This document shows, in pieces, positions 6,144 through 33,041 of a stretch of DNA of 34,828 bases; position 1 is the stretch's first letter, and every line of letters begins with the position of its first letter. The notes below the pieces were generated by a model. It was not told the DNA's origin and ran no database searches. It saw nothing but the letters and a program-made list of their open reading frames with translations. The translations under genes were made by a program, and so were the position numbers. The stretch spans positions 1-34,828 of the forward strand of contig CAZLFU010000003.1 in NCBI GenBank assembly GCA_964558895.1, given 5' to 3'. This DNA comes from an uncultured Candidatus Peribacteria bacterium (GTDB taxonomy: Bacteria > Patescibacteriota > Gracilibacteria > Peribacterales > Peribacteraceae).

Positions 6144-6165
6144 AGCTAGATTTATTCACACAAAA

Positions 6166-6543: not shown

Positions 6544-9500
6544 GATACACATATTCACACGCACAACGTTTTAAAGATGCAGAGCGTCGGTTGGTGTTTA
6601 TGAGCTTTGATGTGGGTGATGGTAGTACAAGTCGTAATTCAGATCCAATTCCAGATAATGAATCATTTAATGATGCAAATTCTGGAACAGAGATTCCAAA
6701 ATCGGAGGATATGTCAGTGGATAGCTGGGCAAAACATGAGCAGGAAGTAGCTGGCCAAAGAGCAAGAGAAGTAGCTGAGAGAGCGCGTAAATTGGCTGAA
6801 ATTCAGAAGGGTCCACCCCCTCCGTCAATGCCGGAATCCGCTCTACCAGAAAGCGTAGAGCCACTTACCGAAGAGCAGGTAGCCGATCTTCTTGAGAAGA
6901 AGTTTCGTGAGGCAGTAGACAGGCTCCACGCTGATCAGGATGGATATGAACAATTCACAATTGACTATGAGGTAGATGGTTTAAATGATTTTCTGAGCAC
7001 AATTCCAGACAGCACAAAAAACGGTGAGTATTTTGTAAATAGAATATATAATTTATTTGAAGAGTTTAATGATGGGACACAAATTGATTACGATGAGACA
7101 ACGCATAGGTTTAATGCAATGTATCCAGGGCCAAAACCAAGTAAGACTCCAGTAGCTACCCCTCCAGAAAGCGTAGAGCCACTTACTGAAGAGCAGCTTA
7201 TTAACAATATTATCGATAAATTTGGAGCATTATGTAACACAGTAAGTGGGGATGAAGTTCCGAGATTAAGTATTGATGCCGAGATTCAATTGTCAGGAAT
7301 AAATGAATTGGTTAATGGCCTCTCAGAGAATGCAAAAGATACGCTCAAAAAATATCAATTAATTGCAGGTTTTAGCGATGACACAATAATTTTTTACGAT
7401 CGTGCTTCTAACCAGTTTAGTTATTCCATTCCACGGGAAGCGCCATCTTCTAGTAGTCCGCGGCCTCTAGACGATAGCTCCACACAAGCACCGGATGTTG
7501 CGCAGAGTGGACCTCAAGAAAGAATTGAGTTGGCGAATGAATATGCTACAAACCTTCAAAAGAGAATGAATCAAATGAAGAGTAAGATTGAAATATCTAT
7601 CCTCGCTAGTACTCCAATTGGAAGGATTGTGAGTGATGGGCAATTTACTGCGAGGAATGGAGAAATATTTTTTAGCTCTTCTCAGGTGCAAGATATCAAT
7701 GCTATAGCCTATTCTATTGGTTATAAAACTAGCGGTAACGATCTTGTGCGAGGAGGGGATAGAATTGCAATGACGAATGGCAGTAAATACGAGATGCCAT
7801 TATATCTAGCGCTCGATTCGAACAGAAACAATTTGGAAGATCTCTACCAGGCGTCCATGCAGAGAATGGCTCAGTGGGAAAACCAGCTTCGTTCTGTTGG
7901 TAGCGTTACAGCTATCGAAGGATTTGATAAGACACATAATGTAGGAGATCGAACAGGGGAATTTAAGGATTTACAAAAAGATGAAGAATTGCAGGGAATT
8001 GCGACCAAGATAAAGAGTGGTCTCGATTCAGATCTTCTCAAAAAGACAGCGTTTGGTAATGCTATTGATGGAATTACTTTCCTCAAAGATGAGGAAGGAC
8101 ACTTCTACATGGAGTCAGAGAAGACACCTGCTTTCCAACACTTCTGCCAAGACCTGTGGAAAGGCCTTCCAATTTACTCAAGAAATGGAGAAGGGAAAAA
8201 TGGTACGTATGTTGTGGAATTGCAAGAATCCGATAAGCAAGCATTTATTGAAAGATTAGAATGGGTGAGCGCAGCATTCGGAGGGGAAAAATCAAGAGCA
8301 GGCATCTTTGGTGCTTTAGATAAGGATGCAAAAATTCCTGCAAAAAAGGCAGAAACCCCTGATGTTTCTGACGATACGATACTCAATGTAAATGCCGCAC
8401 CGGAGACAAAAGAGATTAATGAGCTTGTCGAGAAGTTGCAGAATATTTTGATTGAAATGAGAGCGGAAGTTCCAAATCAAGAAAATCTATTAATGTCTCC
8501 AATTGGACGTATTCTAAATTATAGCTCGTTCCAGGCGGTTGGTGGGAAAGTATATTTTCGATCAACAGCAACAAAAGAAATCCAAAAAGTTGCTACAACT
8601 ATCGGTTACACAATGGACGACAAAAAAAACCTAACTCCAAAAAACAACAAAGGAGCTATCACCTTTGTAGAAAAAGAAGGCGAACAAGAGGCGTACTATG
8701 ACGTACCATTCCATCTTGCCATGGGGGGCAAGGAGGATGCAGAGGGTAGTGCAATGATAGAGAGTGCAAAAAAAGTATTAGGAAAATGGGGAAGACTGTA
8801 CTCTGAGCATGTAAATACAATAGAGAACTTTGAAGAGGATATTGCTGTAATTAAACCCGATTATGACAAAATGCAATATGATAATGAGTTAATGAGCGAG
8901 TTTGATGCTCAGGTATTACATGATATGAATGGCAGTATCTATAAAGATACTGTTATTGGAAGAGCATTAAATGGTATACAAATTCGTTCTGATACAGAAA
9001 ATATTTATTTAGGCTCAAGAAAAACAGCGGAGTTCCAGCATTTCTATAGAGATGTATTGCAAAAAATGAATTTATCTATCCCACAAAAAGAGGAATCTGA
9101 ACTATCGCAAATATCTATTTTGCAAACAGAATCTACGCGTGGGGACTATTATGTGAAAATTCCAAAAGCGAATAGAAATCTCTTACTTGAGCAATTTAAA
9201 TTATGGAGAGCAATTCTTGTGTCAGAGGATCCTGAATCCTCTGAAGGGAAATCATCTATAGATATGGGTGTTGTGCAGAATATAGCATCTAAGTTGAAGC
9301 AATTGATAACTCAAGAAAATGATGATGAAGAGAGTATTATAGACGGACTTGCACAAATGCCTGTATTGGAATTAGAGTACGCACTCAATGACGCATCAGA
9401 GGTGAAAACAATTACCCTTGAAATATGGAATAAAATAAAAAGTGAAGATGTGGGTGCTAGGAGAGAGGGCCTACAGGAGTTGCTTGCTATTGTCAAAAAA

Positions 9501-9869
9501 CCTGAAGAACCAATAGGGGCGCCAGAAGCCACACCTGAAACTGAAGTGCAAGCTTGGGAGAGAATCGGTCGAGAATACATTGGTATAGAACCAGATGCAG
9601 AAGGTATCTATACTGTAAATAGATCGATGAAAGGAACCCCTATTCTTCTTCGCTTTAACCCAAAAAGTGGGTGGGAGTGGAATCCTAGTAAGATCCAATC
9701 CAACCCATATCCAGATCAATGGTATTCTCCAGAGCAACTTGAGGTGCCATGGTATGGTACATTTAGTCTTAATTACTTTGAAAGTAAGGCATCACCATCC
9801 GAGGAAAACCAGAAGCTTCTTAATTTATTGGCAGATTTGAATAGAGAAGCTAAGTCTTCTAGTCGATGA
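6540..9869 (+). CDS. Large hypothetical modular protein (1109 aa) with internal tandem duplications
   Basis: Uninterrupted 3.3-kb ORF. It contains two ~106-aa modules that each start ESVEPLTEEQ, and two ~300-aa modules that share SPIGRI...G.(I/V)(F/Y)F.S...IGY and T.(E/A)FQHF. No signal peptide. Confidence 0.7.
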   Translation: MRYTYSHAQRFKDAERRLVFMSFDVGDGSTSRNSDPIPDNESFNDANSGTEIPKSEDMSVDSWAKHEQEVAGQRAREVAERARKLAEIQKGPPPPSMPESALPESVEPLTEEQVADLLEKKFREAVDRLHADQDGYEQFTIDYEVDGLNDFLSTIPDSTKNGEYFVNRIYNLFEEFNDGTQIDYDETTHRFNAMYPGPKPSKTPVATPPESVEPLTEEQLINNIIDKFGALCNTVSGDEVPRLSIDAEIQLSGINELVNGLSENAKDTLKKYQLIAGFSDDTIIFYDRASNQFSYSIPREAPSSSSPRPLDDSSTQAPDVAQSGPQERIELANEYATNLQKRMNQMKSKIEISILASTPIGRIVSDGQFTARNGEIFFSSSQVQDINAIAYSIGYKTSGNDLVRGGDRIAMTNGSKYEMPLYLALDSNRNNLEDLYQASMQRMAQWENQLRSVGSVTAIEGFDKTHNVGDRTGEFKDLQKDEELQGIATKIKSGLDSDLLKKTAFGNAIDGITFLKDEEGHFYMESEKTPAFQHFCQDLWKGLPIYSRNGEGKNGTYVVELQESDKQAFIERLEWVSAAFGGEKSRAGIFGALDKDAKIPAKKAETPDVSDDTILNVNAAPETKEINELVEKLQNILIEMRAEVPNQENLLMSPIGRILNYSSFQAVGGKVYFRSTATKEIQKVATTIGYTMDDKKNLTPKNNKGAITFVEKEGEQEAYYDVPFHLAMGGKEDAEGSAMIESAKKVLGKWGRLYSEHVNTIENFEEDIAVIKPDYDKMQYDNELMSEFDAQVLHDMNGSIYKDTVIGRALNGIQIRSDTENIYLGSRKTAEFQHFYRDVLQKMNLSIPQKEESELSQISILQTESTRGDYYVKIPKANRNLLLEQFKLWRAILVSEDPESSEGKSSIDMGVVQNIASKLKQLITQENDDEESIIDGLAQMPVLELEYALNDASEVKTITLEIWNKIKSEDVGARREGLQELLAIVKKPEEPIGAPEATPETEVQAWERIGREYIGIEPDAEGIYTVNRSMKGTPILLRFNPKSGWEWNPSKIQSNPYPDQWYSPEQLEVPWYGTFSLNYFESKASPSEENQKLLNLLADLNREAKSSSR

Positions 9870-12402: not shown

Positions 12403-13455
12403 TCACTCCATAGGCCAATCCTTATCGTCAAATACCGCTCCCTCCACTTTTGGATCGCGCCCCTTTTTGATGGCTTTATAGCGCTGTTCTGCCCTACGCC
12501 ACGTTGCAAACTGCTCTTCTGTAATGCGTTTTTCTCGATTATAGAGATCTCGTTCTGCATCGTGAGTCCGCTCTCGCTCGTGTCGGATAATCGAGTCTTT
12601 CTGGAGTTGTATACTGTGCTTGTGTTCAGAGAGTTCCTTTTTAAGGTCTACTTCTAGGTCTGATCGCTGTTTGATAAAACGTTTTTGGGCTATTTCCTTC
12701 TGGCGATTTTCCTCTTGTTCTAGAAGTCTTTCGGTTCTTGTACGCTCGGAAACATCGTGAATAGATTGAAGTTCCTGTTTTTTACGCTCGTATTGAAAAG
12801 CGATTTTCTGTAGATCCATTTTCTCCTTTTCATTCATGCGAGTAAGTTTTTGCCGATACTCTACCTGTAGAACTTGTTGTCTTTCTCGTTCCTGTCCTTC
12901 TAGTTCTGCTCGTTTCTTCCGAGCATCTTCTGCAATGACATGCTTTATCTGATGAGCTTCTTGCTCGGCCAGTAGTTTGAACTGAGCTGCTTTTGCTTTT
13001 GCTTCGGCGTACATACGATCTCTTTCCACAAGGGCATTATGTTTCCACTCTTCCTCTTTTACATTCCTCGCGGCCTCTTCGCTCACGCCTTCCATATACT
13101 CTTGTTGCTTTCCTTTCTCATCTTTCGCTTTTTCACGCAGCTCTTGCTCATGTAGTTCTCTTTCTTTTTTTCTCTCCTTATCTTTGAGCAATTCCTCTTT
13201 ACGCTGCTTCTCCTGCTCTGCCCATTTCTTGCGCTCCTCTCGTCTGTGTACTACCTCTTCGTCTTGTTCCTTCACCATGACGTGCTCCTGTTCCTCCTGC
13301 TTTGCAGCTTCTTCCTGATGTTTCAATTTAGATGCATCCTGTTTTTCTTTCACTTCTGCACGTAGCTCCGCACCGCGTTCGAGGGTGTCTCCAAAAGGGT
13401 TTGGATTTGGGGTTTTCTTGCCTTGATTGTTATCTGTTTGAGGGTTCGGAAACAT
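12403..13455 (-). CDS. Hypothetical highly charged E/K/R-rich protein (350 aa), probable long charged helix or coiled coil
   Basis: Uninterrupted ORF dominated by E, K, R and Q. It has a short Pro/Asn-rich N-terminus and an ordered-looking C-terminus (FATWRRAEQRYKAIKKGRDPK). Confidence 0.65.
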   Translation of the reverse strand: MFPNPQTDNNQGKKTPNPNPFGDTLERGAELRAEVKEKQDASKLKHQEEAAKQEEQEHVMVKEQDEEVVHRREERKKWAEQEKQRKEELLKDKERKKERELHEQELREKAKDEKGKQQEYMEGVSEEAARNVKEEEWKHNALVERDRMYAEAKAKAAQFKLLAEQEAHQIKHVIAEDARKKRAELEGQERERQQVLQVEYRQKLTRMNEKEKMDLQKIAFQYERKKQELQSIHDVSERTRTERLLEQEENRQKEIAQKRFIKQRSDLEVDLKKELSEHKHSIQLQKDSIIRHERERTHDAERDLYNREKRITEEQFATWRRAEQRYKAIKKGRDPKVEGAVFDDKDWPME

Positions 13456-15556: not shown

Positions 15557-15946
15557 TTAATCTGGCAATCGCTCATTTGTATATTTAATGAGGGAATTTA
15601 TGTCCTTTGGGAGTAACTGTAACTGTTGATAAGTGTAATTATATTCCTCAGTAGTAAGTAAATTGCGTATTCTTGCTTTTTCATTCCAATCAAGAGCTTC
15701 TCTTACAGAAGCGGCACTGTATCTATAGAATTTGATTCGGTCTCTTTTGCCATATCGACCAAATCCTTCTGCGATGTTTGCCGAAATAGAATCAACCGAT
15801 CGAACAAATTGCTTACCAACTGTGTCTTTTGCAAGCCAATCCCACGAAAGCACGATATTCCACACTTCATTGGAAAGGTGAAAGGCAATGCGATAAGAGC
15901 TTATTTGATTAAGTTGCATGTACTGCATAGCAGACCAAAATATCAC
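15557..15946 (-). CDS. Four-helix-bundle protein (23S rRNA intervening-sequence protein family)
   Basis: Family-typical core: VRSVDSISANIAEGFGRYGKRDRIKFYRYSAASVREALDW. The true start is uncertain (GTG at 15946, ATG at 15928 or 15919). Confidence 0.75.
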   Translation of the reverse strand: MIFWSAMQYMQLNQISSYRIAFHLSNEVWNIVLSWDWLAKDTVGKQFVRSVDSISANIAEGFGRYGKRDRIKFYRYSAASVREALDWNEKARIRNLLTTEEYNYTYQQLQLLPKDINSLIKYTNERLPD

Positions 15947-16958: not shown

Positions 16959-17564
16959 CTAGAGACGTACTTCGCCTTTCCTCAACACAGTTTGCGCATT
17001 TTCTACCAAAGAAATGACTGTGGAAGATGCTCGAAGGGGAAGGATGCCACTACTCAAGAGGAGATTTGGCTGCCAAGTTTGGTTTGCAAATTGCTTCGCA
17101 ATTTCATCGGGATCATACAGTGGTGGCTGGCCGTGGATATTGGCAGAGGTTGTACTAAGAGGCTTACCAAACACTTCTGCAAGCTTCTGTGCAGTGGGAT
17201 GAGAAGAAACGCGTACGCCGACACTTGAACAATCGTTTTGAGGCATTGGGAAAAGCGTACCCCTTCTTTCTGATCGTAGTGGGAGGATAAGCGTAAGTGG
17301 CCCTGGCAGATGTTTTTTTGCCAATTCTTCTGCCTTCTCATTCCATTGGGTATATTCCTTTGCCTGGTCGATAGAAGCAAACAAGCTGCTTATGGGCATA
17401 TCCAATGGGCGCTGCTTGATGGCGAATACTTTTTTGACTGCTTCGATGTTACCCAGATCGCAGGCAAGACCGTATGTTGTTTCTGTAGCGTGCACGACAA
17501 CTCCTCCTGCATGCAGGATGGCGAGCGCTTCTTCTAGGCCTTCGGTATCAATGAGAAACTTCAT
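16959..17564 (-). CDS. tsaC: L-threonylcarbamoyladenylate synthase (YrdC/TsaC type)
   Basis: 201 aa from MKFLIDTEG. It has the motifs HATETTYGLACD, KQRP...P, LPGPLTLIL, VGVR.S and TSAN. TACAAT (17572-17577) lies 7 nt upstream of the ATG. Confidence 0.85.
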   Translation of the reverse strand: MKFLIDTEGLEEALAILHAGGVVVHATETTYGLACDLGNIEAVKKVFAIKQRPLDMPISSLFASIDQAKEYTQWNEKAEELAKKHLPGPLTLILPLRSERRGTLFPMPQNDCSSVGVRVSSHPTAQKLAEVFGKPLSTTSANIHGQPPLYDPDEIAKQFANQTWQPNLLLSSGILPLRASSTVISLVENAQTVLRKGEVRL

Positions 17565-18177
17565 CAGGATTATTGTACGTATTTTTCTGTTTGGCACCTG
17601 CGTTATGTTGATTTTCTTTGTGCTGACCATTTCCTGTATTGTTTACTCTTCCCCGCGCTCGTTCTCGTAATTGCATCAATGTGTGGTATTTCTTGGAGAT
17701 GTGTGGAGTGAAGTGAATACGCATAGTTGTTTCCTGCGCATCTAGTATCAAACTACCGAAACCAAGGATGTTTTGAATAGGGCCGTGTTGGCTTTTGTTA
17801 ATGTCTTGTAGCATCCAAATATCGATGCTTTGATGATCATCAATGGCGAAGAGGGTCTTCTTTATTCTATGCACTTTGTTATTGGTGATGACAGTGATAT
17901 TGAGAAAGTAGCGGTAAAATCTGCTCAGAAGTTCCCATTGAGCAAAGGAAAAGAGTAGAGAGAGTACGACCAAAATTAACCTCCTTGTGAATGGATCTGC
18001 TACGGTAGTATTTCCAAATATCATGTATCCCATTGTAAAAATTAAGAGAGTCCACACCGCTGTTTTGGCGACAGGTCTTAGGAGGCGAATCCAGTGCTGA
18101 CGAAAGCAAAGCTCACAGGTTTCGTGTACATCTTGTCCTTGAAACATCGCCGTAGATTGTTGAGATTCATTTACCAT
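17548..18177 (-). CDS. Membrane protein with bacterial PH (bPH_2/YdbT-like) domain
   Basis: Two TM helices (AVWTLLIFTMGYMIF, LILVVLSLLFSFAQ) are followed by ITVITNNKVHRIKKTLF....SIDIWMLQDI......NILGFGSL. I chose the ATG at 18177. The longer track start overlaps the upstream small ORF. Confidence 0.65.
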   Translation of the reverse strand: MVNESQQSTAMFQGQDVHETCELCFRQHWIRLLRPVAKTAVWTLLIFTMGYMIFGNTTVADPFTRRLILVVLSLLFSFAQWELLSRFYRYFLNITVITNNKVHRIKKTLFAIDDHQSIDIWMLQDINKSQHGPIQNILGFGSLILDAQETTMRIHFTPHISKKYHTLMQLRERARGRVNNTGNGQHKENQHNAGAKQKNTYNNPDEVSH

Positions 18178-18395
18178 AAGAACATGTACAGAAAGGCAAA
18201 GCATCCTGCAAAAAATACAGTATGGACGAAAACAACTATCCGAATAGTTGCATACGTAAATCGCTGTGTACCGGCAATTTTTGCATGTGCTTCTAGCCCT
18301 ACTTCGGCCATTTTTTTTCGAAATACTTTCCACAAGGCATATTCAATAAGAACAATGAATGCAGCGCCGACAATTGCAATCACTATTCCGCTCAT
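18171..18395 (-). CDS. Possible small two-TM membrane protein (74 aa)
   Basis: Hydrophobic N- and C-terminal segments. It fills the gap between dnaE and the bPH gene and overlaps the next start by 7 nt. Confidence 0.35.
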   Translation of the reverse strand: MSGIVIAIVGAAFIVLIEYALWKVFRKKMAEVGLEAHAKIAGTQRFTYATIRIVVFVHTVFFAGCFAFLYMFLW

Positions 18396-22239: not shown

Positions 22240-22701
22240 CTACGAGCCGCAGTCTTCGTCTTCGTAAGTTGAGCAGATTTTGATGAAGCTACCCAACTGA
22301 TAGATGCGGTAGCCGGTTACAGTTACACTTGTCTCACTTGGGTCTACGGGGATACCAACAAAGTACTCCGAGTTTGTCGTAAGCACAGAAAGATCAAAAC
22401 CATTTGTTGGTGGGTCCGTACAGGCTGTGCCGGTAATTCCGTCTTGGCAGATATCCTTGGCTACTGCTTTAAAATTGGGGACTCCTGTGAGTGAATTTCC
22501 GTCAATAATATACTGAGAAATTGCATTTTCAATTTCTCGAATGGAGAGATTTCTATCTGCACCTCTTGCGTCTTCCAATTGTTTGGTTGGATTGATAGCT
22601 GCTATCACAATTGCTACTAAAATAGCGATGATACCAAGCACCAACATGATTTCTATAAGTGTGAAACCGTTTTGCCAGTGTGGAATTCGACGACTGTTCA
22701 T
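22240..22701 (-). CDS. Type IV pilin / pseudopilin-like protein
   Basis: Prepilin signal: MNSRRIPHWQNG/FTLIEIMLVLGIIAILVAIVIAAI. The C-terminal half has two Cys pairs. The start could instead be the GTG at 22713. Confidence 0.8.
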   Translation of the reverse strand: MNSRRIPHWQNGFTLIEIMLVLGIIAILVAIVIAAINPTKQLEDARGADRNLSIREIENAISQYIIDGNSLTGVPNFKAVAKDICQDGITGTACTDPPTNGFDLSVLTTNSEYFVGIPVDPSETSVTVTGYRIYQLGSFIKICSTYEDEDCGS

Positions 22702-22749
22702 GGAAGGGTACACAAACCTTACTGCAACTTACGAAACGCTGCAATATGA

Positions 22750-24264
22750 CTAGAGACCTGCATCTATTTTGCAGGCTTCGTGAGCATTGCCACTGTAGAG
22801 ATAATCTCCACTGGTGTACGGGAAACAGTTGTCCGATTCTAGAATTTTGAGCAGTGTATCGAGTTTTTCATTACAGGGTCTGTAGAGACATGAGCGCCTG
22901 AGGAAAAATGTATAGTCTATGGCAAACCCACGAACACTTGTTCCTTTCTCGCTGGCTAACTTTGCAAATTGGAACATCGCCTTGCGCAGTTGCGCAGAAA
23001 ACACATTACGAATTTGATACGTTGCATCTGTGCCTTTTGCGATAAATGCAGCTTCTGCTGCACCCTGCGCGGTTGTGAATTCTTGGTATGCTTTTTTTCC
23101 TTCTGATGTTTCTTCCCATAGTGTTACTGTGGGGGAGGTAGGAATCTTACGTTCTATTCCCCAATGTTGCTTGAGGCTCAATAAATTTTCTAAGATTCCA
23201 AGTTGATTCTTTTCGTACGAGAATGGCCCTCGTAGTGCAGCTTTGGTTCCCCCTAATGCATAAATAATATTTGGATCTACTGGGCCAGTTGTAACCTGCC
23301 CATTTGGTTCATGACGAGCTTCGCATCCAAACACCACTTTACGTGGAATAGTTGCAAAGGAAGAAATGGCAGCAGACGGAGCACCTACAATAGAACTCGT
23401 ATTGTTGATCGTGTTTGCTATTTCGGCAAGAAAGTCATCCCTCCAATCCATAAATGCTTCCAACCCGGCAATCTCTTCGTTCGTTGATACATTTGGTCCT
23501 CCTTTGTATGGGAGAAGAACATCCAAGGTGCAACCCAAACCAGCATTGGTAGGCGGAAGATAATCGGAATGGAATGGGCATAGAGCCTCTGGTGTCTCAA
23601 TAACTGGTATGACACCATTGCATCCAGGGCAACAAAAATTCATGCAGGACGCTTCACCAGCATACGATCGACCAAATGCAAGACGCGTGCAAGCTTGTGC
23701 AGAATCATACAACTCGCAGGCATTTCCAATATTTGCACAACACCAAACAGATTGATCTGGATCGAAACTTCGGGGAATTTGCCATCCTTCATCAACATAG
23801 AGAGGATCTAGACCTCCACGGAACAAGCTCTCGTATCGTTCATTGAGGAAGGTGAGTAAATCTTGCAATTTTAAGATCCCGACGGAAGACCCTTGAGAAT
23901 ATGCCTCTTGCATTTTGCAGCGTACCCTCTGCATTTCTGCCTCGATCAAAGCGAGATCTAAATGCATACATGCGGTGAGATCTAAATCCCGTTCCTGTGC
24001 AGTAATGCGTAACTTTGTATCTAGTAAGCTATTCATGGCCACCCCCATTTTCGTGAGCCAGAACAAATAATTCGTATTTGGATCAAATCCTGGAAGAGTA
24101 CTTTGGGCATTTTGAATTCCAGCTTCAGCTCGGTTGAGTACTTGCTGTGTGTAGTGCGAAGAAATAGGTGCTAAAGCGAGAATAGCAGGATCCTCACATG
24201 CATATGCTTCTACTTGTTGAGGTAGGAAGAGCAAGAAGCCGAGAAAAGAGAATACTGAAAGCAT
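22750..24264 (-). CDS. Secreted cysteine-rich hypothetical protein (504 aa)
   Basis: I prefer the ATG at 24264, which exposes the signal peptide MLSVFSFLGFLLFLPQQVEAYA. The upstream 146 codons of the track ORF overlap the preceding gene. It has Cys clusters (WCCANIGNACELY, CMNFCCPGCNG). Confidence 0.7.
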   Translation of the reverse strand: MLSVFSFLGFLLFLPQQVEAYACEDPAILALAPISSHYTQQVLNRAEAGIQNAQSTLPGFDPNTNYLFWLTKMGVAMNSLLDTKLRITAQERDLDLTACMHLDLALIEAEMQRVRCKMQEAYSQGSSVGILKLQDLLTFLNERYESLFRGGLDPLYVDEGWQIPRSFDPDQSVWCCANIGNACELYDSAQACTRLAFGRSYAGEASCMNFCCPGCNGVIPVIETPEALCPFHSDYLPPTNAGLGCTLDVLLPYKGGPNVSTNEEIAGLEAFMDWRDDFLAEIANTINNTSSIVGAPSAAISSFATIPRKVVFGCEARHEPNGQVTTGPVDPNIIYALGGTKAALRGPFSYEKNQLGILENLLSLKQHWGIERKIPTSPTVTLWEETSEGKKAYQEFTTAQGAAEAAFIAKGTDATYQIRNVFSAQLRKAMFQFAKLASEKGTSVRGFAIDYTFFLRRSCLYRPCNEKLDTLLKILESDNCFPYTSGDYLYSGNAHEACKIDAGL

Positions 24265-24265
24265 A

Positions 24266-26740
24266 TTATTCAAATCCACGAGGGCACATCTGGGAAGGAA
24301 GGCGAACGTTGGAAATTCCAGAGAGGATCGTATTTGCATTTTCGATGAGTTCGGCCAGCGTCCTACCAGGGTAGAGAAGATAATTTGCATAGAGTTCTGT
24401 GCCAATTTTTGTGGCAATCCCCTGCGATAGCTTTTGTGTATTGAAGGCAGGTTCTGCGTACTCAACTTGTTGGTCGAGTAGGCTTTGTGCGGTTGCAATA
24501 TCGAGCCCCTTTGGCGCATCAAACGCGCGCGAGTTTTCGAATGCACAAAGCACTGGTGGTGTTTTAGCAGGCAAGCCATTTGTCTGACAAATTGCGAGAT
24601 CCATTTGTTCCATAAGCCATTTAGGAGTGTACGGTGGAAATCGTGTAGATGGTCGCCTTGGTATTGTGAGAATTTCTCCAATGACGGGGTCTGGTTTGAC
24701 ATCTGAATCTTTTTCGAAAGATTGATCTTGAGAAACGATTGCCATTCTGCCGGGGATAATTCTTTCGTGTTCTATGGATTGCTCTATACATTGCCCTATG
24801 TAGCACAGGTTATTTCCAATCGTGTTTTCGTACGTAGCCTGACATTCGGGAGAGCAGATCATAGGGAGTGAATTGATCATTTTTTTCGCGCGCCCATCCA
24901 TATTGTTGATAGCGTCTTCGCAGGAGAGATTTACGCCCAACTCATTCGCGTACGTTTCTGTAAACTGGAAGATCATTGCGTTGATTGTATTCAACTCATC
25001 CACAGAAACTGAGGGTGTGCAAATCATCGATGTTATATTTCCTACACGATCTGTTGGTGCACATGAATTATTTGAAAGAATGCTGCTGCATACTTCGATA
25101 TCTATGCCTAATGTAGGGAGGACACCATCTTCTGCTAGTGCAGCACACTGCGCATGATATGCCTCTCGCTCGTTGGCACAACACTGTTCTGTACCAGTGA
25201 ACATCGTATCAAATGTGTTCTGACCGGGTGGTTGACCACACAATTGCTGTGCGTGAACCAATTCATGAATGAGAACATAATCTGCAAATCCCGCTTCTCC
25301 TAATTCGTTAGGAATACATATTTCTATGACTCCATTATCATTTTTCGGGTTTGTTATCGCAAGCCGCGTTCCCCTTCCACAATTATCCGCACAGTAAATG
25401 TCTACTGCACAGTTGCTACATTCATTTGGCTCAATAGCAGGACTTCCATCAGAGCCATCTTGCTTTTCTGGTGTGTCAGGAACTGTTGAGATGTACGGAT
25501 CAGTTCTCCATCCTCCAATTTCACATATGTCTGTTCCAAATGTTGTATCTGCAACGTAGGAATCGAATAATTGAGGTTCGCAGGATGTGAGTGTTATGGT
25601 GTTTGGCTCGTCATCACTACTTGAACCTCCTCCTATATCAGTACTTTCTCTGCAATCAGAAGAGCGGATAGACCTACAAAGATATCCTCTTTGTCCAAAG
25701 AAATGTGAGCATATACCTTCATTGAGACCAGGTTCTGGTGGTGGATCTGGGTATTTTCCACCAAGAATTGCACCATTCACACACTCTGGTGGCGCGGCGC
25801 TTGAGTTGGAACAATCTAAGGAGGGCAACACTGGTTCTAGTGGCAGACCCCATTGTAGGCCTACATCTTTTTGACTTGCCCACACACTCACATTGAGATC
25901 TGGAAAAGTATAAATTGGGAATATGACATGTTCATTGCGAGTAAGTGGTGGATCGAATGTCATTTGTTGAATTTCTTGTAGTATAGCTTCGAGTGCATTT
26001 TCTACGTCGCACCATCGCATGCGCAGTGTTTGTAGTTCTGTTCCGTCGCCCAGGCTGTTACTAGGGTCACAAGCACCATTGTAATATAGTATCGATTCAA
26101 ATCCGTGACGGTAACGCCACACAGCTGCCGTAAACTCTTCGCCATCATTAAGAGTGTCATTATTTTGAAGCCCTCGAAGGCTCGCACGTAGGTCAGCTAG
26201 TGGACCACTACCATTTGTAACGGTATCAGGAAATGAAGCGCCTCTTAGTTGGGTTTCTATAATTGGGCTTTGAAGTTTATCCGTGTCGGATTGCCATATC
26301 TTGATAATACTTGGCATGCGAGTTGCTACATTTATTTTTCTGCCAGGATATCCATCAATTCCCAATTCGTAACTACTGGCAATTATTTGTAGATCTCTTC
26401 CGAGAGCACGTATCCAATTTGTGCCATTTGCTATAGATGTGATTTCGCTTGTCAGAGCATCGCAATCATTCCATGTGAGAGGATATGGGTCGTATGATTT
26501 TCCCGCGCAGAGACTGTTTACATCTTGTCGTACTGCCCTATTAACATCTTCCTCTACTACTTTCCATTTTGCGGGCATAGCATTTTTTACAAATCGTTTT
26601 ACCACCGGCTCAACTTTTGAATTGGTGTAGTATTCTTGAAGTGTAATTTTTTGCATACGCTCGTAGAGTGAGTCGTCATTTGCTATGACGCTGTGAGGTG
26701 CAACAAGAAGAAGGCCGATAATTATGGTTGAGGATCGCAT
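24266..26740 (-). CDS. Secreted cysteine-rich protein with HExxH zincin motif (824 aa)
   Basis: Signal peptide MRSSTIIIGLLLVAPHSVIAND. The motif YVLIHELVHAQQLCG lies at 25253-25267. Many Cys residues. Confidence 0.75.
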   Translation of the reverse strand: MRSSTIIIGLLLVAPHSVIANDDSLYERMQKITLQEYYTNSKVEPVVKRFVKNAMPAKWKVVEEDVNRAVRQDVNSLCAGKSYDPYPLTWNDCDALTSEITSIANGTNWIRALGRDLQIIASSYELGIDGYPGRKINVATRMPSIIKIWQSDTDKLQSPIIETQLRGASFPDTVTNGSGPLADLRASLRGLQNNDTLNDGEEFTAAVWRYRHGFESILYYNGACDPSNSLGDGTELQTLRMRWCDVENALEAILQEIQQMTFDPPLTRNEHVIFPIYTFPDLNVSVWASQKDVGLQWGLPLEPVLPSLDCSNSSAAPPECVNGAILGGKYPDPPPEPGLNEGICSHFFGQRGYLCRSIRSSDCRESTDIGGGSSSDDEPNTITLTSCEPQLFDSYVADTTFGTDICEIGGWRTDPYISTVPDTPEKQDGSDGSPAIEPNECSNCAVDIYCADNCGRGTRLAITNPKNDNGVIEICIPNELGEAGFADYVLIHELVHAQQLCGQPPGQNTFDTMFTGTEQCCANEREAYHAQCAALAEDGVLPTLGIDIEVCSSILSNNSCAPTDRVGNITSMICTPSVSVDELNTINAMIFQFTETYANELGVNLSCEDAINNMDGRAKKMINSLPMICSPECQATYENTIGNNLCYIGQCIEQSIEHERIIPGRMAIVSQDQSFEKDSDVKPDPVIGEILTIPRRPSTRFPPYTPKWLMEQMDLAICQTNGLPAKTPPVLCAFENSRAFDAPKGLDIATAQSLLDQQVEYAEPAFNTQKLSQGIATKIGTELYANYLLYPGRTLAELIENANTILSGISNVRLPSQMCPRGFE

Positions 26741-27558
26741 CTGAGGGGGTCGTCACAAATATCGCGTAGTGAATCTTTTGCATTCCAAATACGTGGAAGG
26801 CAACTACTTGTTTCTGCAGCAATGGCGAATGCGTTACGGAAATCAAGAGAGGCTCGTTGCATACATTGCAGCTCTTTATCCAGGGTAAGCAATCGGTTAA
26901 AGCCTCCTACAAACTCTAGGACTCTATTGGCTATTGCTCTGGCAGTTAGTAATTCTCTATCAATTTTTTCCTGCTGATCTGCCGTTTCCTTTGTTATTTT
27001 TTCTAGAATAATGGGAGTCAAGCCAGCACCAAAAATAATATCGCTCCACTGGAATTCTTCTCTGGTCACGTCAATTGCAAGACTGTATCCACGTTCTCGC
27101 AGAACACATTCGTATGCATTTACATATTCAAGTATCACAGCTCCAAAATCGTCTTCGCTCAGACGTGCAAAATCCGTCGGATTTTTCCATGGTGGGAGAT
27201 TGCTTGCTACGAAAGATAATGTCGATCCTGGTGGAGAAAAATTCGCCAAGGTATCTGCAGTGCAATTTGGCGCCGTTTCATTGTTGATATCTTTCATATG
27301 GTGAGACACCATGTCGTTCATCGTGCTGTGATATTTACTTTGCCAAATATCTATAGGATCTTGTTTGGTATCTGGATCATTTCCAAATTCTGCAAGTGTA
27401 TACCCAAAGAGTGTTTGATATTCCGAGAGTGAACATGGTTCCAAGATTGGATAGGTAGATTGCGCACTCGTAGGTGGTATCCATTGAGTTTCTATGAACA
27501 AAATACCAATGACGAAGAATAGTGTTGAGAAAGCCTTTTGTGGCAACTGAACAATCAT
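26722..27558 (-). CDS. Secreted hypothetical protein (278 aa)
   Basis: N-terminal hydrophobic segment AFSTLFFVIGILFIETQ. The C-terminus is Cys-rich (CLPRIW...ICDDPLRCDP). It overlaps the next gene by 19 nt. Confidence 0.65.
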   Translation of the reverse strand: MIVQLPQKAFSTLFFVIGILFIETQWIPPTSAQSTYPILEPCSLSEYQTLFGYTLAEFGNDPDTKQDPIDIWQSKYHSTMNDMVSHHMKDINNETAPNCTADTLANFSPPGSTLSFVASNLPPWKNPTDFARLSEDDFGAVILEYVNAYECVLRERGYSLAIDVTREEFQWSDIIFGAGLTPIILEKITKETADQQEKIDRELLTARAIANRVLEFVGGFNRLLTLDKELQCMQRASLDFRNAFAIAAETSSCLPRIWNAKDSLRDICDDPLRCDPQP

Positions 27559-27561
27559 GAT

Positions 27562-28386
27562 CTAAGGGTTTTGAGTAGAATCTTGAATTGGCTCATCGCA
27601 AGATGCGATGAAACAAGGAATACGCCCCAGCGCACCTATTACCCGTGCTCCTGTGCGCAGAGTGCCTGTTACCGTCCACTGAAACTCTTCTAAGAAGAGA
27701 TCAAAATTACCAGCAAATTGTAAGAGGGTTCTGTATGCAGCATCGTACTCTGTAACCATCCGGAGCTGGTCTGCTTCTTGTTCCAGTAAATTATTTGTTA
27801 TGTCTTCGCAGTAACGAAATATTCCGGCCATTTGAGATGTATCTTGTGCATTGGCCAATTGGCACTGTGGAATGCTTGGGATATTTGCAAGGGGCATACA
27901 ACCTGCAGCTGCTAGATTGAATAGCTGGGGGTTGGCAGATCCAATTTGCAAAGACTTTTCTACCAATTGACAGATGCTTGCAGTATTACACTGCAAAGCA
28001 TGCATATTAGAAGTCATATAGGGGATAAGTTCTGATGTGAGCACCCTCTTTGTATTAAGTATGCCTCTTCGGGCCGAGAGCTCGGACTGTTGATCCATCA
28101 GCGTATTTGACCATTCGGTTCCTTCATATCCTTCTGCTCTGGAACGCCATGCAGTCTTGGAAACCTTATACCAAGCATTCCCTTCTTTGTCGTAGTACAC
28201 AGAGCCGATATTGGCATCTTCTGCAGATTGATGCCCTAACAAAACAGAACGATACAAGCGTTGCTCTTTCCACAGGCGCAAGTGGACTTCGTTTCTGCAT
28301 TCATCTGCTCCAACAGAAATTTGCGCCAGAGATGCCACTGGGCAGAGCAGAGTAGTGAGGCCGAGTATGATTGATAATAGTTTCAT
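27562..28386 (-). CDS. Secreted hypothetical protein (274 aa)
   Basis: The ATG at 28386 gives the signal peptide MKLLSIILGLTTLLCPVASLAQ. It lies 10 nt after the upstream stop and ends 3 nt before the next start. Confidence 0.65.
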   Translation of the reverse strand: MKLLSIILGLTTLLCPVASLAQISVGADECRNEVHLRLWKEQRLYRSVLLGHQSAEDANIGSVYYDKEGNAWYKVSKTAWRSRAEGYEGTEWSNTLMDQQSELSARRGILNTKRVLTSELIPYMTSNMHALQCNTASICQLVEKSLQIGSANPQLFNLAAAGCMPLANIPSIPQCQLANAQDTSQMAGIFRYCEDITNNLLEQEADQLRMVTEYDAAYRTLLQFAGNFDLFLEEFQWTVTGTLRTGARVIGALGRIPCFIASCDEPIQDSTQNP

Positions 28387-28396
28387 AGACGTACGT

Positions 28397-31300
28397 TTAT
28401 GGGGGACAAGAACCACAATCATCAACACAGTTTACACATGTTTCGCCTTGGTCGCAGGCCAAGTCACCACAGAATGGTGGAGGGGAGACAAGATTAATTG
28501 AATTACTATTTAAGGTGGTGCTTGTTGTGCCCTCTGTCTCTTCTGGTACAGAAAATGAAGGAGTAATATCCGAGCGGGTGGATGCATAGGGGAAGAGCTG
28601 TTCGGGGGGGACGCCTACTTGCAATAAAGTTTCGTTAAAAATACACGAGCGTAACTGATCAATCAGTGTTCCACGGTCCTGTACAGAGAAGGTTGCAGTA
28701 AAACCACAGACAGGCTCTGCATTGTCGCTATCCGGAGGTGTTGGCCCTTTGAGTTTCCAACTCAATTGAGGGAAGGTTCGAGTTGGTTGCGTGCTCTGGC
28801 ATACAAAATCTGTTGGATCACAATGTGGTCCGTATCCCACTTCAGCTGGATTTGGCAGGGGCTCTTCTGCTTTGTTGAGAACATCTTCTTCGAGTTGTAC
28901 GCCTGGCCTTGCCCCAAGTCGCATAAGTCTCTGGATAATATCCATCTCTGAGTGCACACAAGTTTGACTATTTTTTGCATAACAATCTTCTTCTCCCTCT
29001 GGCTTTACACAGTAGTATCCAGCAGATCCAGACAGACATGAAGGTTTCATAAAGCTCCACCAGAATTTTCTATACACAGCATTCATTCCGCGAATCATTT
29101 GTTTCATACTTGCAATTTCGGTCGAAGCAAAAGTTATAGTTCCCTCCAAATTGGGTATTGAGAAAGAGCCAATAGTTTTTGGAGGTGTGCCCAAGGAAAA
29201 AATTGGTGCATTTTCTGTAATTACTTCTGCAATACTTGGATTCTGCAAATCTATGGAAGGCAGATCTGGAAGAATTGGTTGTGTACCAGTAAGTAGAGAG
29301 GAGCCCTTCGCAGTGTCTGCTGGTGGGGTAAATTTGGAGAAATCCATTCGTACTTGGATAGGCTTTAATACAGGTAGTTTTAGTACTTTTGTAGATTGCT
29401 CCAGGCCTGTTAAATCAAAGAGAGCATCTGGTGATGGGAAAATAGTTAGCTCTGGCATTAAGAATGGCCCCGAGGGGAAACCGGTTGCATCATTGAAAAT
29501 AGTAGAGATTGGATTATCGTCCAACAAAGGACGACCATACATCCAAGGATCTAAAAGAGAATACATAGGTAGTGTGTATCTATCATTTCTACACCAGGGC
29601 ATACTATAGTCGGTTGCATGACGATACGTACTTCCAATACTTCTCCACTCGCTGGAGAGCGTCTGTAATTGATCAAGTTGGTAGAGATAATCAGTATAGA
29701 CAGTTGCATTTTCCTCGAGCCATTTTGTTATTTCCGTCACAATCTGCGATTGGTGTATTACTATCGATTGTATATATTTGGATAACTCTGAGCGCGTGCT
29801 ACGCACGTAGTCCATTTGATCTGCATAGGCATCCAGTTTTGTGATGAGATCATCTGCACCGGTTGTATTGCAATCATTTGTATGGGTGCATATCTCGAGC
29901 CATCTTTTCCACCCGTCAGAAATTACGCGCAGTTCGGTTGCAGATCCCAATGGGACAACAATTGGTACTGGTTCTTCTATCACTTCTATAAGTGAAGTAC
30001 GTTTGACATAGTCTGCAATTTGGCCAAGTAAGTCTTCTCTCGATTCAATTTGCACTTCGATAGCCTGCTCTCTTTTTTCTGGGCTATATCCTGGTGGTGG
30101 ATTTACTGCGGGAATATCTGGTGAAAACAGTGGGTCATTTTTATCTAACCCGATTGACCATAAAGCTGGTAAAAGTAGGCGAATTCTCGGTGGAGTAAAT
30201 AATCTATGTGCATATGTTTGTTGTCTTTGCCACCATCGTACAAGCGATCGGATGCCTGTATCATCAAAGGATCGAATAAGTGATCCTGATGATAGTGGAT
30301 GATCTACATCAAATGGTATTGTTGCTTTATTGCGTGCCTCGTCCGGTGCAAGGAGAGCGTAAGTCAGGTCGCTATCAAAATTGTCGTCAATAAACTGGTC
30401 ATTGACCAGTGATACGCCATTTCCAAGATTTGGAAACCACATGTCTGTATCTTCATCGAAATCCGGATTTCGTGGATCTTCTACAAACGGAGGATCTACC
30501 CAACTGGAATTTTGACCGTATTCCCCTTTATATTTTTGAGTATCGGGTGCGTCTTTAAACGAGATATCGTCGTAATACACAGCGATGACACAATGTTTCC
30601 AACTTCCAAACACACGAGTCACTTTTGGGTCATATTCCTGGTACATGCCGTAGCAGGCAACAGGGATATCCGTTCTATCAAATGTTTCATCTGTACTATC
30701 TGGTAGCCTGTCTCTGCGGTAATTTCCTAGATATCGCCTAAAGTATGAAATATATGTTCTAGCGCCAAAACCACTAGCGTTGACCACTGTACCTTCGTAT
30801 ACGGGCTTTGATGAACGAACTCTGAAATTAGGGTCAGTGTTGTATTGGCTTCTGCAATTATCCCCCTGGCACACAATGCAGTTTTTCCACTCACTACGAA
30901 CATTTTGATCGGTACAGCAGTAATGCGCTCCTAGATTATTCCAGTCAGACCTACTAGGGTCTGTATTTGGTTCATCTAATTTTGCATTAAGCTCTTCATC
31001 CAAGATTTTTTTATCAGGATAAAATACTCTTCCGTCTACTGGTGCTTGCAATTGCCCACATGTGCCCTTCCAATATTCAAACTGAGGAGGATCTTTTGGT
31101 ACCCATCTTCCTGTAGAAGTTCCTCGGATAATTTCTGGTTCTAAAATTTCTCTTTCGAGTAACCAGTACTGCCATAGATCATTCAAGTCATCACAAAGAC
31201 CACCATACGTATCACCAGGGTTATTTGTTCTCCCTGTTTGGGTTCCGAAAATAACAGTGCCACCATCCCCATCCCCATCTCCCCCAGAGCCATCTCCACT

Positions 31301-31885
31301 ATCAAGTCCATCATCTCCTCCCGTGTCTGCCCCTGGTGGATTTGGATATCTAATTAATTGATCTCCCCCACAAGAATAAATAATTCCATCCTCGTTTGCG
31401 TATGGAAAGTTGGGGTCACCTGGTTTGATATCTCCAAATGGCCTTTGGCATGCATGTCGATCAAAAAAAGGGGGAAGATGTCTTGAATCTGCACCAGCCC
31501 ATGGGTTGGGGGTAGCGGGTCTGCATGCTGTTGTGAAACCCCACGCATCGGTTGGGTAATCTAAATTTTGTGCTTGTTCGAGCATGCCTGTATCAGTGGT
31601 TGTTTCCGAGATGATATCGCCTTCTATTTGTCTTCCAGGGACACCCCATATTTCATCTACTATGAGTCCATCTAGACTCGTCTCCCAATCCCACCCTCCA
31701 CATTCTGCTTGTGCAAGATCATCTTCTATTTGTGTCAGCAGTTGCTCTGCTTCGTCAAAACTTGATGGTCGTGTAGAAATGGTCAATGCATCACTGCGAA
31801 AGGGAAGCAGCAATATTGTTGCCAAAAGCACAATACTCAGACCGATGGAATGGACAGCTTTGCGCTGAAGATACACGGTGCTCAT
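28397..31885 (-). CDS. Giant secreted hypothetical protein (1162 aa) with Gly/Asp tract and C-terminal Cys-rich module
   Basis: The ATG at 31885 gives MSTVYLQRKAVHSIGLSIVLLATILLLPFRSDA. A GGDDGLDSGDGSGGDGDGDGG tract lies at about 31261-31330. The protein ends CGDLACDQGETCVNCVDDCGSCPP. Confidence 0.7.
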   Translation of the reverse strand: MSTVYLQRKAVHSIGLSIVLLATILLLPFRSDALTISTRPSSFDEAEQLLTQIEDDLAQAECGGWDWETSLDGLIVDEIWGVPGRQIEGDIISETTTDTGMLEQAQNLDYPTDAWGFTTACRPATPNPWAGADSRHLPPFFDRHACQRPFGDIKPGDPNFPYANEDGIIYSCGGDQLIRYPNPPGADTGGDDGLDSGDGSGGDGDGDGGTVIFGTQTGRTNNPGDTYGGLCDDLNDLWQYWLLEREILEPEIIRGTSTGRWVPKDPPQFEYWKGTCGQLQAPVDGRVFYPDKKILDEELNAKLDEPNTDPSRSDWNNLGAHYCCTDQNVRSEWKNCIVCQGDNCRSQYNTDPNFRVRSSKPVYEGTVVNASGFGARTYISYFRRYLGNYRRDRLPDSTDETFDRTDIPVACYGMYQEYDPKVTRVFGSWKHCVIAVYYDDISFKDAPDTQKYKGEYGQNSSWVDPPFVEDPRNPDFDEDTDMWFPNLGNGVSLVNDQFIDDNFDSDLTYALLAPDEARNKATIPFDVDHPLSSGSLIRSFDDTGIRSLVRWWQRQQTYAHRLFTPPRIRLLLPALWSIGLDKNDPLFSPDIPAVNPPPGYSPEKREQAIEVQIESREDLLGQIADYVKRTSLIEVIEEPVPIVVPLGSATELRVISDGWKRWLEICTHTNDCNTTGADDLITKLDAYADQMDYVRSTRSELSKYIQSIVIHQSQIVTEITKWLEENATVYTDYLYQLDQLQTLSSEWRSIGSTYRHATDYSMPWCRNDRYTLPMYSLLDPWMYGRPLLDDNPISTIFNDATGFPSGPFLMPELTIFPSPDALFDLTGLEQSTKVLKLPVLKPIQVRMDFSKFTPPADTAKGSSLLTGTQPILPDLPSIDLQNPSIAEVITENAPIFSLGTPPKTIGSFSIPNLEGTITFASTEIASMKQMIRGMNAVYRKFWWSFMKPSCLSGSAGYYCVKPEGEEDCYAKNSQTCVHSEMDIIQRLMRLGARPGVQLEEDVLNKAEEPLPNPAEVGYGPHCDPTDFVCQSTQPTRTFPQLSWKLKGPTPPDSDNAEPVCGFTATFSVQDRGTLIDQLRSCIFNETLLQVGVPPEQLFPYASTRSDITPSFSVPEETEGTTSTTLNSNSINLVSPPPFCGDLACDQGETCVNCVDDCGSCPP

Positions 31886-32159
31886 AAGGGTCTGCACTAT
31901 GGTACTGATACCCGTGCACTTGCGTTTGCAACAGGTGTTGACGTTATTTTTTTCAGATTTCTGATCATCAATTTTTTCTTCAAAACAGCAAATACAATTC
32001 TGACAAGTGTATTCGCTTGATCGATCGAGGAAGACAGGTGTACAACTGTACACGCTTCATCTGATATTTAGGTTCATTCATTGTTCTTTTGTGTAGATGG
32101 AGTCGGCAATCTATTGCTCCCGTCAGTGGCATCCTTTACTTCTATTACCTTTTTGTAGC

Positions 32160-33041
32160 ATGTATACCTACAATCGAGTAAACATCATCGGCTATCAGAC
32201 TCAACCAGTTGAGGTACGTCAGACTCCTAATGGGACGAGTGTGACGGATTTAAATGTGGTTGTTCCGCATTCATTTAAAAGTGAAAGTGGCACCATGCAG
32301 ACTGGTAAAAGTTTTCATACAGTAACACTCTGGGGCTCCATGGCAGATGTTGCTGGCCAGTACATTCGTGCAGGAGGACAGGTTTTTATTTCTGGTCGCT
32401 TGCAGACAGATAGCTGGAAGGATGAACAATCCGGCGAAGCGAGAAGTAAAACAAAGATCGTTGGTTTGGATATGATTCTTCTAGATCCCAAAGATGGACA
32501 GATGCCACAGCCAGAAGGTGCCATTTCTATTACGCAGCCTCTCAATAGAGCAGATGTAGTAGGAAATGTGAGCCGAGATCCAGAACTTCGCACTACTACA
32601 AGTGGTCAACAGGTTCTTACTCTTGGAGTAGCAACCAGTGATCGTTGGAAGGACAAAGCAAGTAACGAAGATCGTGAACGAACAGAATTTCACAATGTAG
32701 TTATTTGGGGCGAACTTGCACAGGAAGTAAGTCGTTTCATCAAAAAAGGAAATCGTGTCTTTGTAAGCGGCCGTGTGCAAACTCGCAGTTGGGAAACACA
32801 GGATGGTGCCAAGAGGTACACGACAGAAATTATCGCAGAACAGGTTTCTCTTCTTGGTGTGAAAAACACGGTAGCATTGGAATCGGTAGATGCGAGTGCG
32901 GCTATGTCTGTACCTGCCCCTTCTGCTCCACCTGCGTATGTGCAACAAGGCAGACAGTCCACCGAGCCAGATCCTGTGGCTGTTGGAGTGCCAGATGTGC
33001 AGTACACATCAGAAATTAAAGCTGAAGATCTTCCTTTTTAA
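32160..33041 (+). CDS. ssb: Single-stranded DNA-binding protein with two tandem OB folds
   Basis: 293 aa from MYTYNRVNIIGY. It has two SSB-like halves (NRVNIIGYQTQPVEVR...FISGRLQTDSW and NRADVVGNVSRDPELR...FVSGRVQTRSW), then a Pro/Ala linker and a C-terminal EDLPF tip. Confidence 0.85.
   Translation: MYTYNRVNIIGYQTQPVEVRQTPNGTSVTDLNVVVPHSFKSESGTMQTGKSFHTVTLWGSMADVAGQYIRAGGQVFISGRLQTDSWKDEQSGEARSKTKIVGLDMILLDPKDGQMPQPEGAISITQPLNRADVVGNVSRDPELRTTTSGQQVLTLGVATSDRWKDKASNEDRERTEFHNVVIWGELAQEVSRFIKKGNRVFVSGRVQTRSWETQDGAKRYTTEIIAEQVSLLGVKNTVALESVDASAAMSVPAPSAPPAYVQQGRQSTEPDPVAVGVPDVQYTSEIKAEDLPF

Follow-up and report, generated by a model that had tools for sequence, protein, structure and literature searches.

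Five exported, cysteine-rich proteins encoded by a conserved operon of Candidatus Peribacteria: a candidate envelope or surface complex

Why should a bacterium with a genome of about 1.1-1.3 Mb give some 9.6 kb of it to five exported proteins that have no relatives elsewhere? The question is raised by contig CAZLFU010000003.1 (assembly GCA_964558895.1) from an uncultured Candidatus (Ca.) Peribacteria bacterium. The 34,828 nucleotides (nt) analysed, called the window below, contain five consecutive minus-strand genes, g1 to g5, which are followed by a gene for a type IV prepilin-like protein. A first-pass annotation, made from this single sequence, had taken the six genes as one operon coding for a dedicated cell-surface or pilus-associated apparatus of a small-genome bacterium. 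The host is indeed of that kind, a member of the Peribacteria within the CPR (Candidate Phyla Radiation, also called Patescibacteria). Comparison with related genomes shows that g1-g5 are a single-copy, lineage-defining operon of Peribacteria, and that the pilin gene is a clade-specific addition lying outside this conserved five-gene unit. Our favoured explanation, to which we would give a probability of about 0.5, is that the five products form one membrane-tethered, disulfide-stabilised extracytoplasmic hetero-complex at the core of the Peribacteria envelope or surface.

The five-gene operon and its conservation

Conservation was assessed in a sample for which one genome per GTDB species was scanned with the alignment of g4; this gave 79 loci, on which synteny was mapped by tblastn with the proteins of the window. 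All 79 are loci of Peribacteria, or contigs of the same synteny filed under other bin labels. As far as the contigs reach, the order murB - ssb (divergent) - g1-g2-g3-g4-g5 - dnaE - sua5 - nrdR - aspS is kept in all of them, with homologues of g1 in the same position at 70 loci and ssb divergent to g1 in 62 out of 63; two further loci, obtained by exact protein look-up, have the identical gene order. Loss of the gene neighbourhood in relatives was an outcome that the first-pass annotation had named as refuting its proposal, and the conservation found is far stronger than could be expected from one sequence. In the complete genome of Ca. Peribacter riflensis, the block corresponds to ORFs (open reading frames) 963-967, which overlap by 4 nt, code for proteins of 1030, 279, 263, 821 and 521 amino acids (aa) and are annotated as ‘hypothetical’. 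Two loci bear discordant labels, L019 (JAIPIN010000018.1, Kiritimatiellales) and L055 (Gracilibacteria); since both have the full Peribacteria synteny and a DnaE that groups with those of Peribacteria, the labels look wrong (mis-binning) or follow a different taxonomy scheme.

The five genes are real, constrained and fast-evolving. Their median identity to the window is 30-37%, against 70% for dnaE, 80% for nrdR and 63% for ssb at the same loci, and the ratio of nonsynonymous to synonymous substitution rates (dN/dS) in close species pairs is 0.05-0.21 for all five, against 0.03-0.12 for dnaE. Residuals of evolutionary rate are correlated among g1-g5 (r 0.38-0.87), above their correlation with the housekeeping neighbours, which is weak evidence from 15 species. 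The g4 family is small and sharply bounded: a search with its profile among 1.84 billion protein representatives gave 283 matches, 211 of them at E ≤ 1e-30 (inspection covered all but the 133 weaker ones). About 80 relatives are full-length, with 26-44% identity, and all of these are unnamed or ‘hypothetical’ and come from metagenome bins of Peregrinibacteria/Peribacteria.

The block and its immediate surroundings are composed as follows (positions in the window):

31886-32096, no strand: intergenic region between g1 and the divergent ssb, presumed promoter region of the operon
28397-31885, minus strand: g1, first gene of the operon, 1162 aa, exported, N-terminus MSTVYLQRK... (from the ORF list and its translation)
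27562-28386, minus strand: g2, 274 aa, exported, N-terminus MKLLSIILG..., 8 conserved cysteines (Cys)
26722-27558, minus strand: g3, 278 aa, exported, 5 invariant Cys
24266-26740, minus strand: g4, 824 aa, exported, N-terminus MRSSTIIIG...
25043-25435, minus strand: zincin-like module of g4, residues 436-566, with HELVH at 25253-25267
22750-24264, minus strand: g5, 504 aa, exported, N-terminus MLSVFSF..., even Cys count
22240-22701, minus strand: type IV prepilin-like gene, G/FTLIE followed by a hydrophobic helix
18442-22182, minus strand: dnaE, downstream neighbour, co-directional with g5

ORF table and translations agree exactly with the sizes and junctions first reported for the five minus-strand genes: a 10-nt gap between g1 and g2, a 3-nt gap between g2 and g3, a 19-nt overlap of g3 and g4, and a 1-nt gap between g4 and g5. 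Among the relatives, a 4-nt overlap is the prevailing state of all four internal junctions in most species; it is the commonest arrangement at g1/g2 and is found at g3/g4 in 40 out of 65 relatives. Overlaps of this kind are the signature of translational coupling. The view that one tightly coupled operon encodes five orphan proteins, exported and rich in disulfides, is supported. A promoter scan of the region upstream of g1 (31886-32096) gave no sigma-70 consensus, and a terminator scan gave nothing convincing inside the g1-g5 block or between g5 and dnaE. The latter gene follows g5 within 200 nt in about 45 out of 65 loci, at a distance that can be as short as 11-25 nt, and may for this reason be co-transcribed with the block.

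Neither g1-g5 nor 43 homologues each of g1 and g5 matched a Pfam or NCBIfam model, except for PF18895 on the g5 protein of one relative (L047, see below); a PilY1/PilC beta-propeller or a minor-pilin domain, in particular, was found in none of them. The homologues of g1 and g5 were taken from the genomic loci, because a word-indexed search gave just 6 and 9 of them, respectively, low-complexity words having probably swamped it. Profiles of all five families run against PDB sequences gave nothing below E 0.2. An AlphaFold2 (AF2) model of g4 built from 52 sequences has a mean pLDDT (predicted local distance difference test score) of 74.7, and Foldseek searches with it in PDB and BFVD gave nothing at E < 0.4; the model of g1, built from six sequences, has a mean of 33.8 and is unusable. 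The g1 protein is made up of a signal peptide, an insert that is variable and rich in Gly/Asp/Ser, C-terminal two-thirds that are conserved, and a clade-specific Cys tail at the C-terminus (CGDLACDQGETCVNCVDDCGSC), which is conserved no further than the closest relative and matched no NCBIfam repeat model. Two possible origins were considered and rejected: prophage or defence, as g1-g5 had no matches in PHROGs and PADLOC, and internal duplication or paralogy, as hhalign among the five families aligns the signal peptides and nothing else. In a limited full-text search of the literature no description of the block was found, and its genes stand in published genomes as unremarked hypothetical proteins. 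Apart from a zincin-like motif and export signals of a generic kind, g1-g5 could be matched to no known family or system, in line with the first-pass annotation; homology to well-characterised families such as pilins or PilY1, which would have counted against the first interpretation, was found in neither Pfam nor NCBIfam.

Export, disulfide bonding and membrane anchoring

Signal peptides were judged by a heuristic that looks for charge in the n-region, hydrophobicity in the h-region and an AxA-like site. Each of g1-g5 in the window has a hydrophobic N-terminal segment, and signal-peptide features recur in more than 90% of about 63-77 homologues per family, in all five families, so that the Sec-type N-termini noticed at first are not due to chance. 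All N-termini examined in the five families were devoid of the prepilin signal (G/F..E or G/FTLxE) and presented Sec-type or lipoprotein signal peptides instead.

Cys accounts for 2.5-3.8% of the residues of g1-g5, while the neighbouring DnaE, AspRS, Mfd, SSB and MurB contain roughly 0.5-1%. In invariant columns, it dominates the conserved positions of the five alignments. When Cys residues are counted downstream of the signal peptide, their number is even for 52 out of 61 g1 homologues (range 20-40), for 65 out of 71 g2 homologues (exactly 8 in 57 of the 71) and for 75 out of 77 g5 homologues (range 8-28). It is odd for 70 out of 72 g4 homologues (range 13-39) and, the lipobox Cys being set aside, for at least 62 out of 68 homologues of g3, where 5 Cys are invariant. 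A parity that remains fixed while the counts vary is what disulfide bonding predicts, because residues would then be gained and lost in pairs; it indicates, if indirectly, that the Cys of g1-g5 are paired in disulfides. Moreover, odd parity in two adjacent and overlapping genes suggests that g3 and g4 may be joined by an intermolecular disulfide, to which each would contribute its one leftover Cys. The initial view, that the proteins are Cys-rich in the manner of disulfide-bonded extracellular proteins, is supported by enrichment and parity, but Cys-richness is not specific to the block, since a Cys-rich exported proteome is general in Peribacteria, for which a disulfide-forming protein has also been reported (PMC4736985).

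Two features bear on where the proteins reside. About 24 out of 68 g3 homologues, mostly from the major clade distant from the window, have a clear lipobox (LLSGC, LLAGC or LTAC). The g3 protein of the window (…FIETQWIPPTSAQS) lacks the pattern L-[AS]-[GA]-C; instead of a lipobox it shows a signal peptide or signal anchor. In two groundwater Peregrinibacteria (L047:9368-11428 and L058), g5 is extended by a Pro/Ser linker and a C-terminal two-helix domain, PF18895 ‘T4SS_pilin’ (VirB2-like, E 8.8e-9), and this fusion would anchor g5 in the membrane of these organisms. Judged by sequence, the g3 lipobox and the g5 fusion would place the proteins at the membrane surface, not in the medium.

The g4 module, the prepilin gene and the other genes of the window

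The Cys strings and the HExxH motif quoted in the first-pass annotation are both present in the proteins. The motif, HELVH, occupies residues 492-496 of g4 on a predicted helix (486-501), and E524, the putative third ligand of a zincin-like module, lies on a second one (517-537), after an invariant CC pair. In the AF2 model, residues 436-566 are predicted to form three strands, the HELVH helix and the second helix, with a pLDDT of roughly 82-93 in this block; alignment and prediction thus agree on the HExxH-on-helix and third ligand that define zincins. Among 52 aligned sequences, H492 is conserved in 46, E493 in 43, H496 in 44 and E524 in 48. When the isolated module and its homologues were compared with Pfam, the sub-threshold matches were all zincins: DUF6782 (E 4.6e-4, the best of them, with 19.9 bits for a cut-off of 27), Peptidase_M76 (E 0.005), eCIS_core/DUF4157 (E 0.02) and YgjP (E 0.1). 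The weak Foldseek matches of g4 (E 0.4-8) were to M36, M61, IrrE-like and SprT-like proteins. We read the module as a divergent zincin-like domain, its membership of a family being unproven.

The HExxH motif is intact in about 63 out of 72 species and degenerate in about 6, and in 3 the module is deleted. In L005, for instance, the catalytic residues are lost and HGLVRAQQ is found instead; in L077, L078 and L080, and also in P0051 and about 20 other representatives of 614-720 aa, the module is gone (window residues ~407-614) and the flanking parts of g4 are kept. Since the operon, together with what lies N- and C-terminal of the module in g4, is kept wherever the module is degenerate or deleted, proteolysis cannot be the core function, and a peptidase activity of the module, if there is one, could not be universal. 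The secreted proteolytic complex initially offered as an alternative is weakened by the same losses.

As for the sixth gene, its ORF can be read from a GTG at 22713, i.e. 36 nt after g5 as first described, but the ATG at 22701 (48 nt after g5) is the likelier start and gives MNSRRIPHWQNG/FTLIE. Its identification as a prepilin gene stands: it has the motif G/F-x-x-x-E followed by a hydrophobic helix (MNSRRIPHWQNG/FTLIEIMLVLGIIAILVAIVIAAI), and its sole Pfam/NCBIfam match, the prepilin N-methylation domain, is above thresholds (PF07963 (N_methyl), 25.9 bits for a cut-off of 21.2; TIGR02532, 29.7 for 16.3). A tblastn search located the pilin gene in 12-13 of about 65 loci; about 80% of the relatives lack it, and in most of these g5 adjoins dnaE. 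The operon is therefore one of five genes, not of six. Where present, the pilins have 55-66% identity to each other, and in the DnaE tree the loci that carry them are scattered inside one of the two major clades, with none in the other. Unrelated genes, coding for an ABC-F type ATPase or an H+-pyrophosphatase, occupy the space between g5 and dnaE in some lineages (L061:13979-15436, L081:11584-13041, L009:6077-8218). Because pilin, ATPase or pyrophosphatase can be found at the same place in different lineages, this slot is a permissive insertion site. Type IV pili have been reported as encoded by Peribacteria genomes (PMC4736985); there are no pilus assembly genes in the window or within 10 kb of the block. 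The idea of a pilus-associated apparatus has consequently received no positive support, g1-g5 having neither prepilin signal nor PilY1 domain.

Otherwise the window consists of core housekeeping genes (DnaN, Mfd, tRNA-Leu, AspRS, NrdR, Sua5, DnaE, SSB and MurB), and an Rfam scan of the window returned tRNA-Leu and nothing else. A few of the other genes deserve mention. The SSB (32097-33041, plus strand) is a 314-aa protein with two SSB/OB (oligonucleotide/oligosaccharide-binding) stretches in one polypeptide, and its relatives are alike (~290 aa, PF00436 twice); the tandem-OB layout resembles that of Deinococcus-Thermus SSBs. A ‘23S rRNA-intervening sequence protein’ (PF05635, E 6e-19) is encoded between aspS and nrdR (15557-15946, minus strand) by a gene that stands by itself, with no rRNA nearby. 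Several long and highly charged proteins, rich in Lys/Glu, poor in Cys and without Pfam match (453, 142, 1109 and 350 aa), are encoded at 4713-9869 (plus strand) and 12403-13455 (minus strand); they look cytoplasmic and unrelated to the exported block. Finally, a 261-aa ORF (17548-18333, minus strand), which has a Cys-rich N-terminus (3.4% Cys), hydrophobic segments and no family match, is found next to sua5 in about 20 relatives; its start overlaps sua5 by 83 nt, and the true start is thus probably further downstream.

Competing explanations and comparison with known systems

How, then, could the five proteins work? According to the explanation that we favour, they would leave the cytoplasm by way of Sec and acquire disulfide-bonded folds through oxidation outside it; made in coupled amounts, they would most likely form one hetero-oligomer on the outside of the cytoplasmic membrane. 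The tether would be g3, as a lipoprotein in one clade and through its signal peptide or signal anchor elsewhere, and the one unpaired Cys kept by each of g3 and g4 would probably join the two proteins by an intermolecular disulfide. The metallopeptidase-like module of g4 would be an accessory part, because it is lost or inactivated in some lineages, while g1, g2 and g5 would serve as structural or binding subunits. The grounds for proposing a complex are the single-copy conservation with preserved order, translational coupling, export, Cys that are paired and, for g3 and g4, complementary, the lipid and helical anchors, and a modest correlation of rates; genes, export signals, conservation, parity, anchors and motif are what the analysis shows. 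As to the role, we lean towards a constitutive envelope or surface structure (architecture, maintenance or a standing contact layer), because the block is universal, single-copy, fixed in a core replication/cell-wall neighbourhood and under purifying selection; these traits fit neither a toxin or pilus nor an adhesin that varies. A cell-surface apparatus, as in the first-pass annotation, remains the best reading of g1-g5.

Several points weigh against this explanation. Physical assembly, the g3-g4 bond and the function are what we infer, and there is no direct evidence of contact among the five proteins. In g3 as in g4, the unpaired Cys could instead bind a metal or remain a free thiol. Tethering in the window is deduced from relatives, the window g3 having no lipobox and the window g5 no membrane domain, and a usable structure model is available for one protein out of five, g4. 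The conservation described is that of a sample of loci retrieved through g4. Lastly, the fast evolution of g1-g5 (30-37% identity, compared to 60-80% for the neighbours) would fit a host-facing role too.

Such a role is the main rival. A surface complex could attach a presumed episymbiont to its host or take material from it, perhaps together with type IV pili, the g4 module acting on host surface proteins. In favour of this, all five proteins evolve fast, are exported and are rich in disulfides; a symbiotic lifestyle and ‘attachment’ roles have been proposed for Cys-rich exported proteins of Peribacteria (PMC4736985), a pilin gene adjoins the block in some clades, and a VirB2-like domain is fused to g5 in two species. 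However, the block is single-copy, universal and syntenic and does not vary between strains in the way reported for the putative adhesins that these genomes encode; nor is it among the variable, highly Cys-rich proteins of the published list. Its dN/dS remains well below 1, the peptidase motif can be dispensed with, and there is no known host. We consider a host-contact apparatus possible, but on balance doubtful. A bolder version, in which a disulfide-cross-linked, lipoprotein-anchored five-subunit surface machine, without precedent in bacteria, would be the defining envelope organelle with which the ultra-small Peribacteria dock onto a host and exploit it, with the g4 zincin as processing or attack enzyme and pilin-type proteins (type IV pilin, VirB2-like domain) as accessories repeatedly recruited to the locus, appears unlikely to us.

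The remaining possibilities are less likely than host contact. It would be improbable that g1-g5 are five independent exported proteins caught in an old frozen neighbourhood and forming no complex. The whole 20-kb order is frozen, including the unrelated murB, ssb, dnaE, sua5, nrdR and aspS, which makes synteny by itself a weak argument for a common function; but 4-nt overlaps at four junctions in most species exceed simple synteny, and the complementary odd parity of the adjacent g3 and g4, as well as the correlated rate residuals, also speak for a closer relation. Still harder to sustain is a secreted protease or toxin complex built around g4. HELxHAxQ and the downstream Glu are conserved in about 88% of the species, the predicted strands, motif helix and second helix fit a zincin core, and the sub-threshold matches are all zincins; yet none of them reaches a family threshold, the remainder of g4 and the operon outlive the module (degenerate in ~6/72 species, deleted in 3/72 and in the 614-720-aa representatives), the membrane anchors speak against free secretion, and a fixed core-genome synteny is unlike that of toxin loci. 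The possibility that g1-g5 prime or decorate the pilus of the adjacent pilin, as a tip or minor-pilin-like complex, is very improbable: it draws on a bona fide prepilin gene 36-48 nt downstream of g5 in the window and on the similarity of the pilins among the relatives that have one, but is largely refuted by their distribution, as the gene is lacking from most g1-g5 genomes, including one whole major clade, and its slot is elsewhere taken by the ABC-F ATPase or the H+-pyrophosphatase. Prepilin signals and PilY1/minor-pilin matches are absent from all five families, and pilus assembly genes are wanting within 10 kb. An S-layer was also considered, and rejected: it is typically made of one or two abundant proteins that are poor in Cys.

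The way of life of Peribacteria, a CPR class without cultured members, is unknown, and g1-g5 constitute a bounded target for learning what their envelope or host interface is composed of: five new protein families, a testable covalent link between g3 and g4, a candidate anchor and a candidate enzyme. In addition, Cys parity is a cheap and general way to infer disulfides and inter-subunit links from genomes alone.

Among known systems, a near likeness is found in the large, extracellular and Cys-rich proteins that Ca. Peribacter riflensis encodes (Anantharaman et al. 2016, PMC4736985), which share with g1-g5 the organisms, the signal peptides, a raised Cys content, a predicted extracellular or membrane-associated location and the absence of an assigned function. 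Those proteins average 1655 aa, with a Cys content of 2.4-11.4% (Table S4) and a mean of 7.2% in a 14-gene cluster; repeat-like in part (FG-GAP, with a weak similarity to pappalysin), they vary from strain to strain (PMC4736985). In contrast, g1-g5 are smaller and much less Cys-rich, and ORFs 963-967 do not appear on that list. The g4 module can be likened to minimal-core HExxH...E zincins (Atp23/M76, eCIS_core/DUF4157, DUF6782, YgjP/WLM-like and ImmA/IrrE), with which it shares an HELxHAxQ helix placed after a small sheet, and a conserved Glu carried by the helix that follows. Atp23 is Cys-rich and folds in an oxidising compartment; the g4 module is Cys-rich too and would fold in such a compartment. 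Unlike these zincins, the module is embedded in an 824-aa protein, the other ~690 residues of which match nothing, remains below every curated threshold and has lost its catalytic residues in several lineages.

The resemblance to the minor-pilin/PilY1 tip complexes of type IV pili lies in a multi-protein extracellular assembly encoded beside a pilin gene, and goes no further: prepilin leaders, PilY1 or minor-pilin domains, a conserved linkage to the pilin and nearby assembly genes are all missing from g1-g5. A last parallel is with the VirB2-like (PF18895) pilins of the type IV secretion system of Patescibacteria (PMC12102498), genes for which are abundant, and often arrayed, in CPR genomes; the domain is fused to g5 in two species, whereas the g5 of the window is without it. 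VirB4, VirB6 and VirD4 were found neither in the window nor in the called genes of two relatives' loci or the inserts after g5, the other 10-kb flanks having been screened with window proteins only. The PF18895 fusion looks like a membrane anchor for g5 rather than the sign of a secretion machine.

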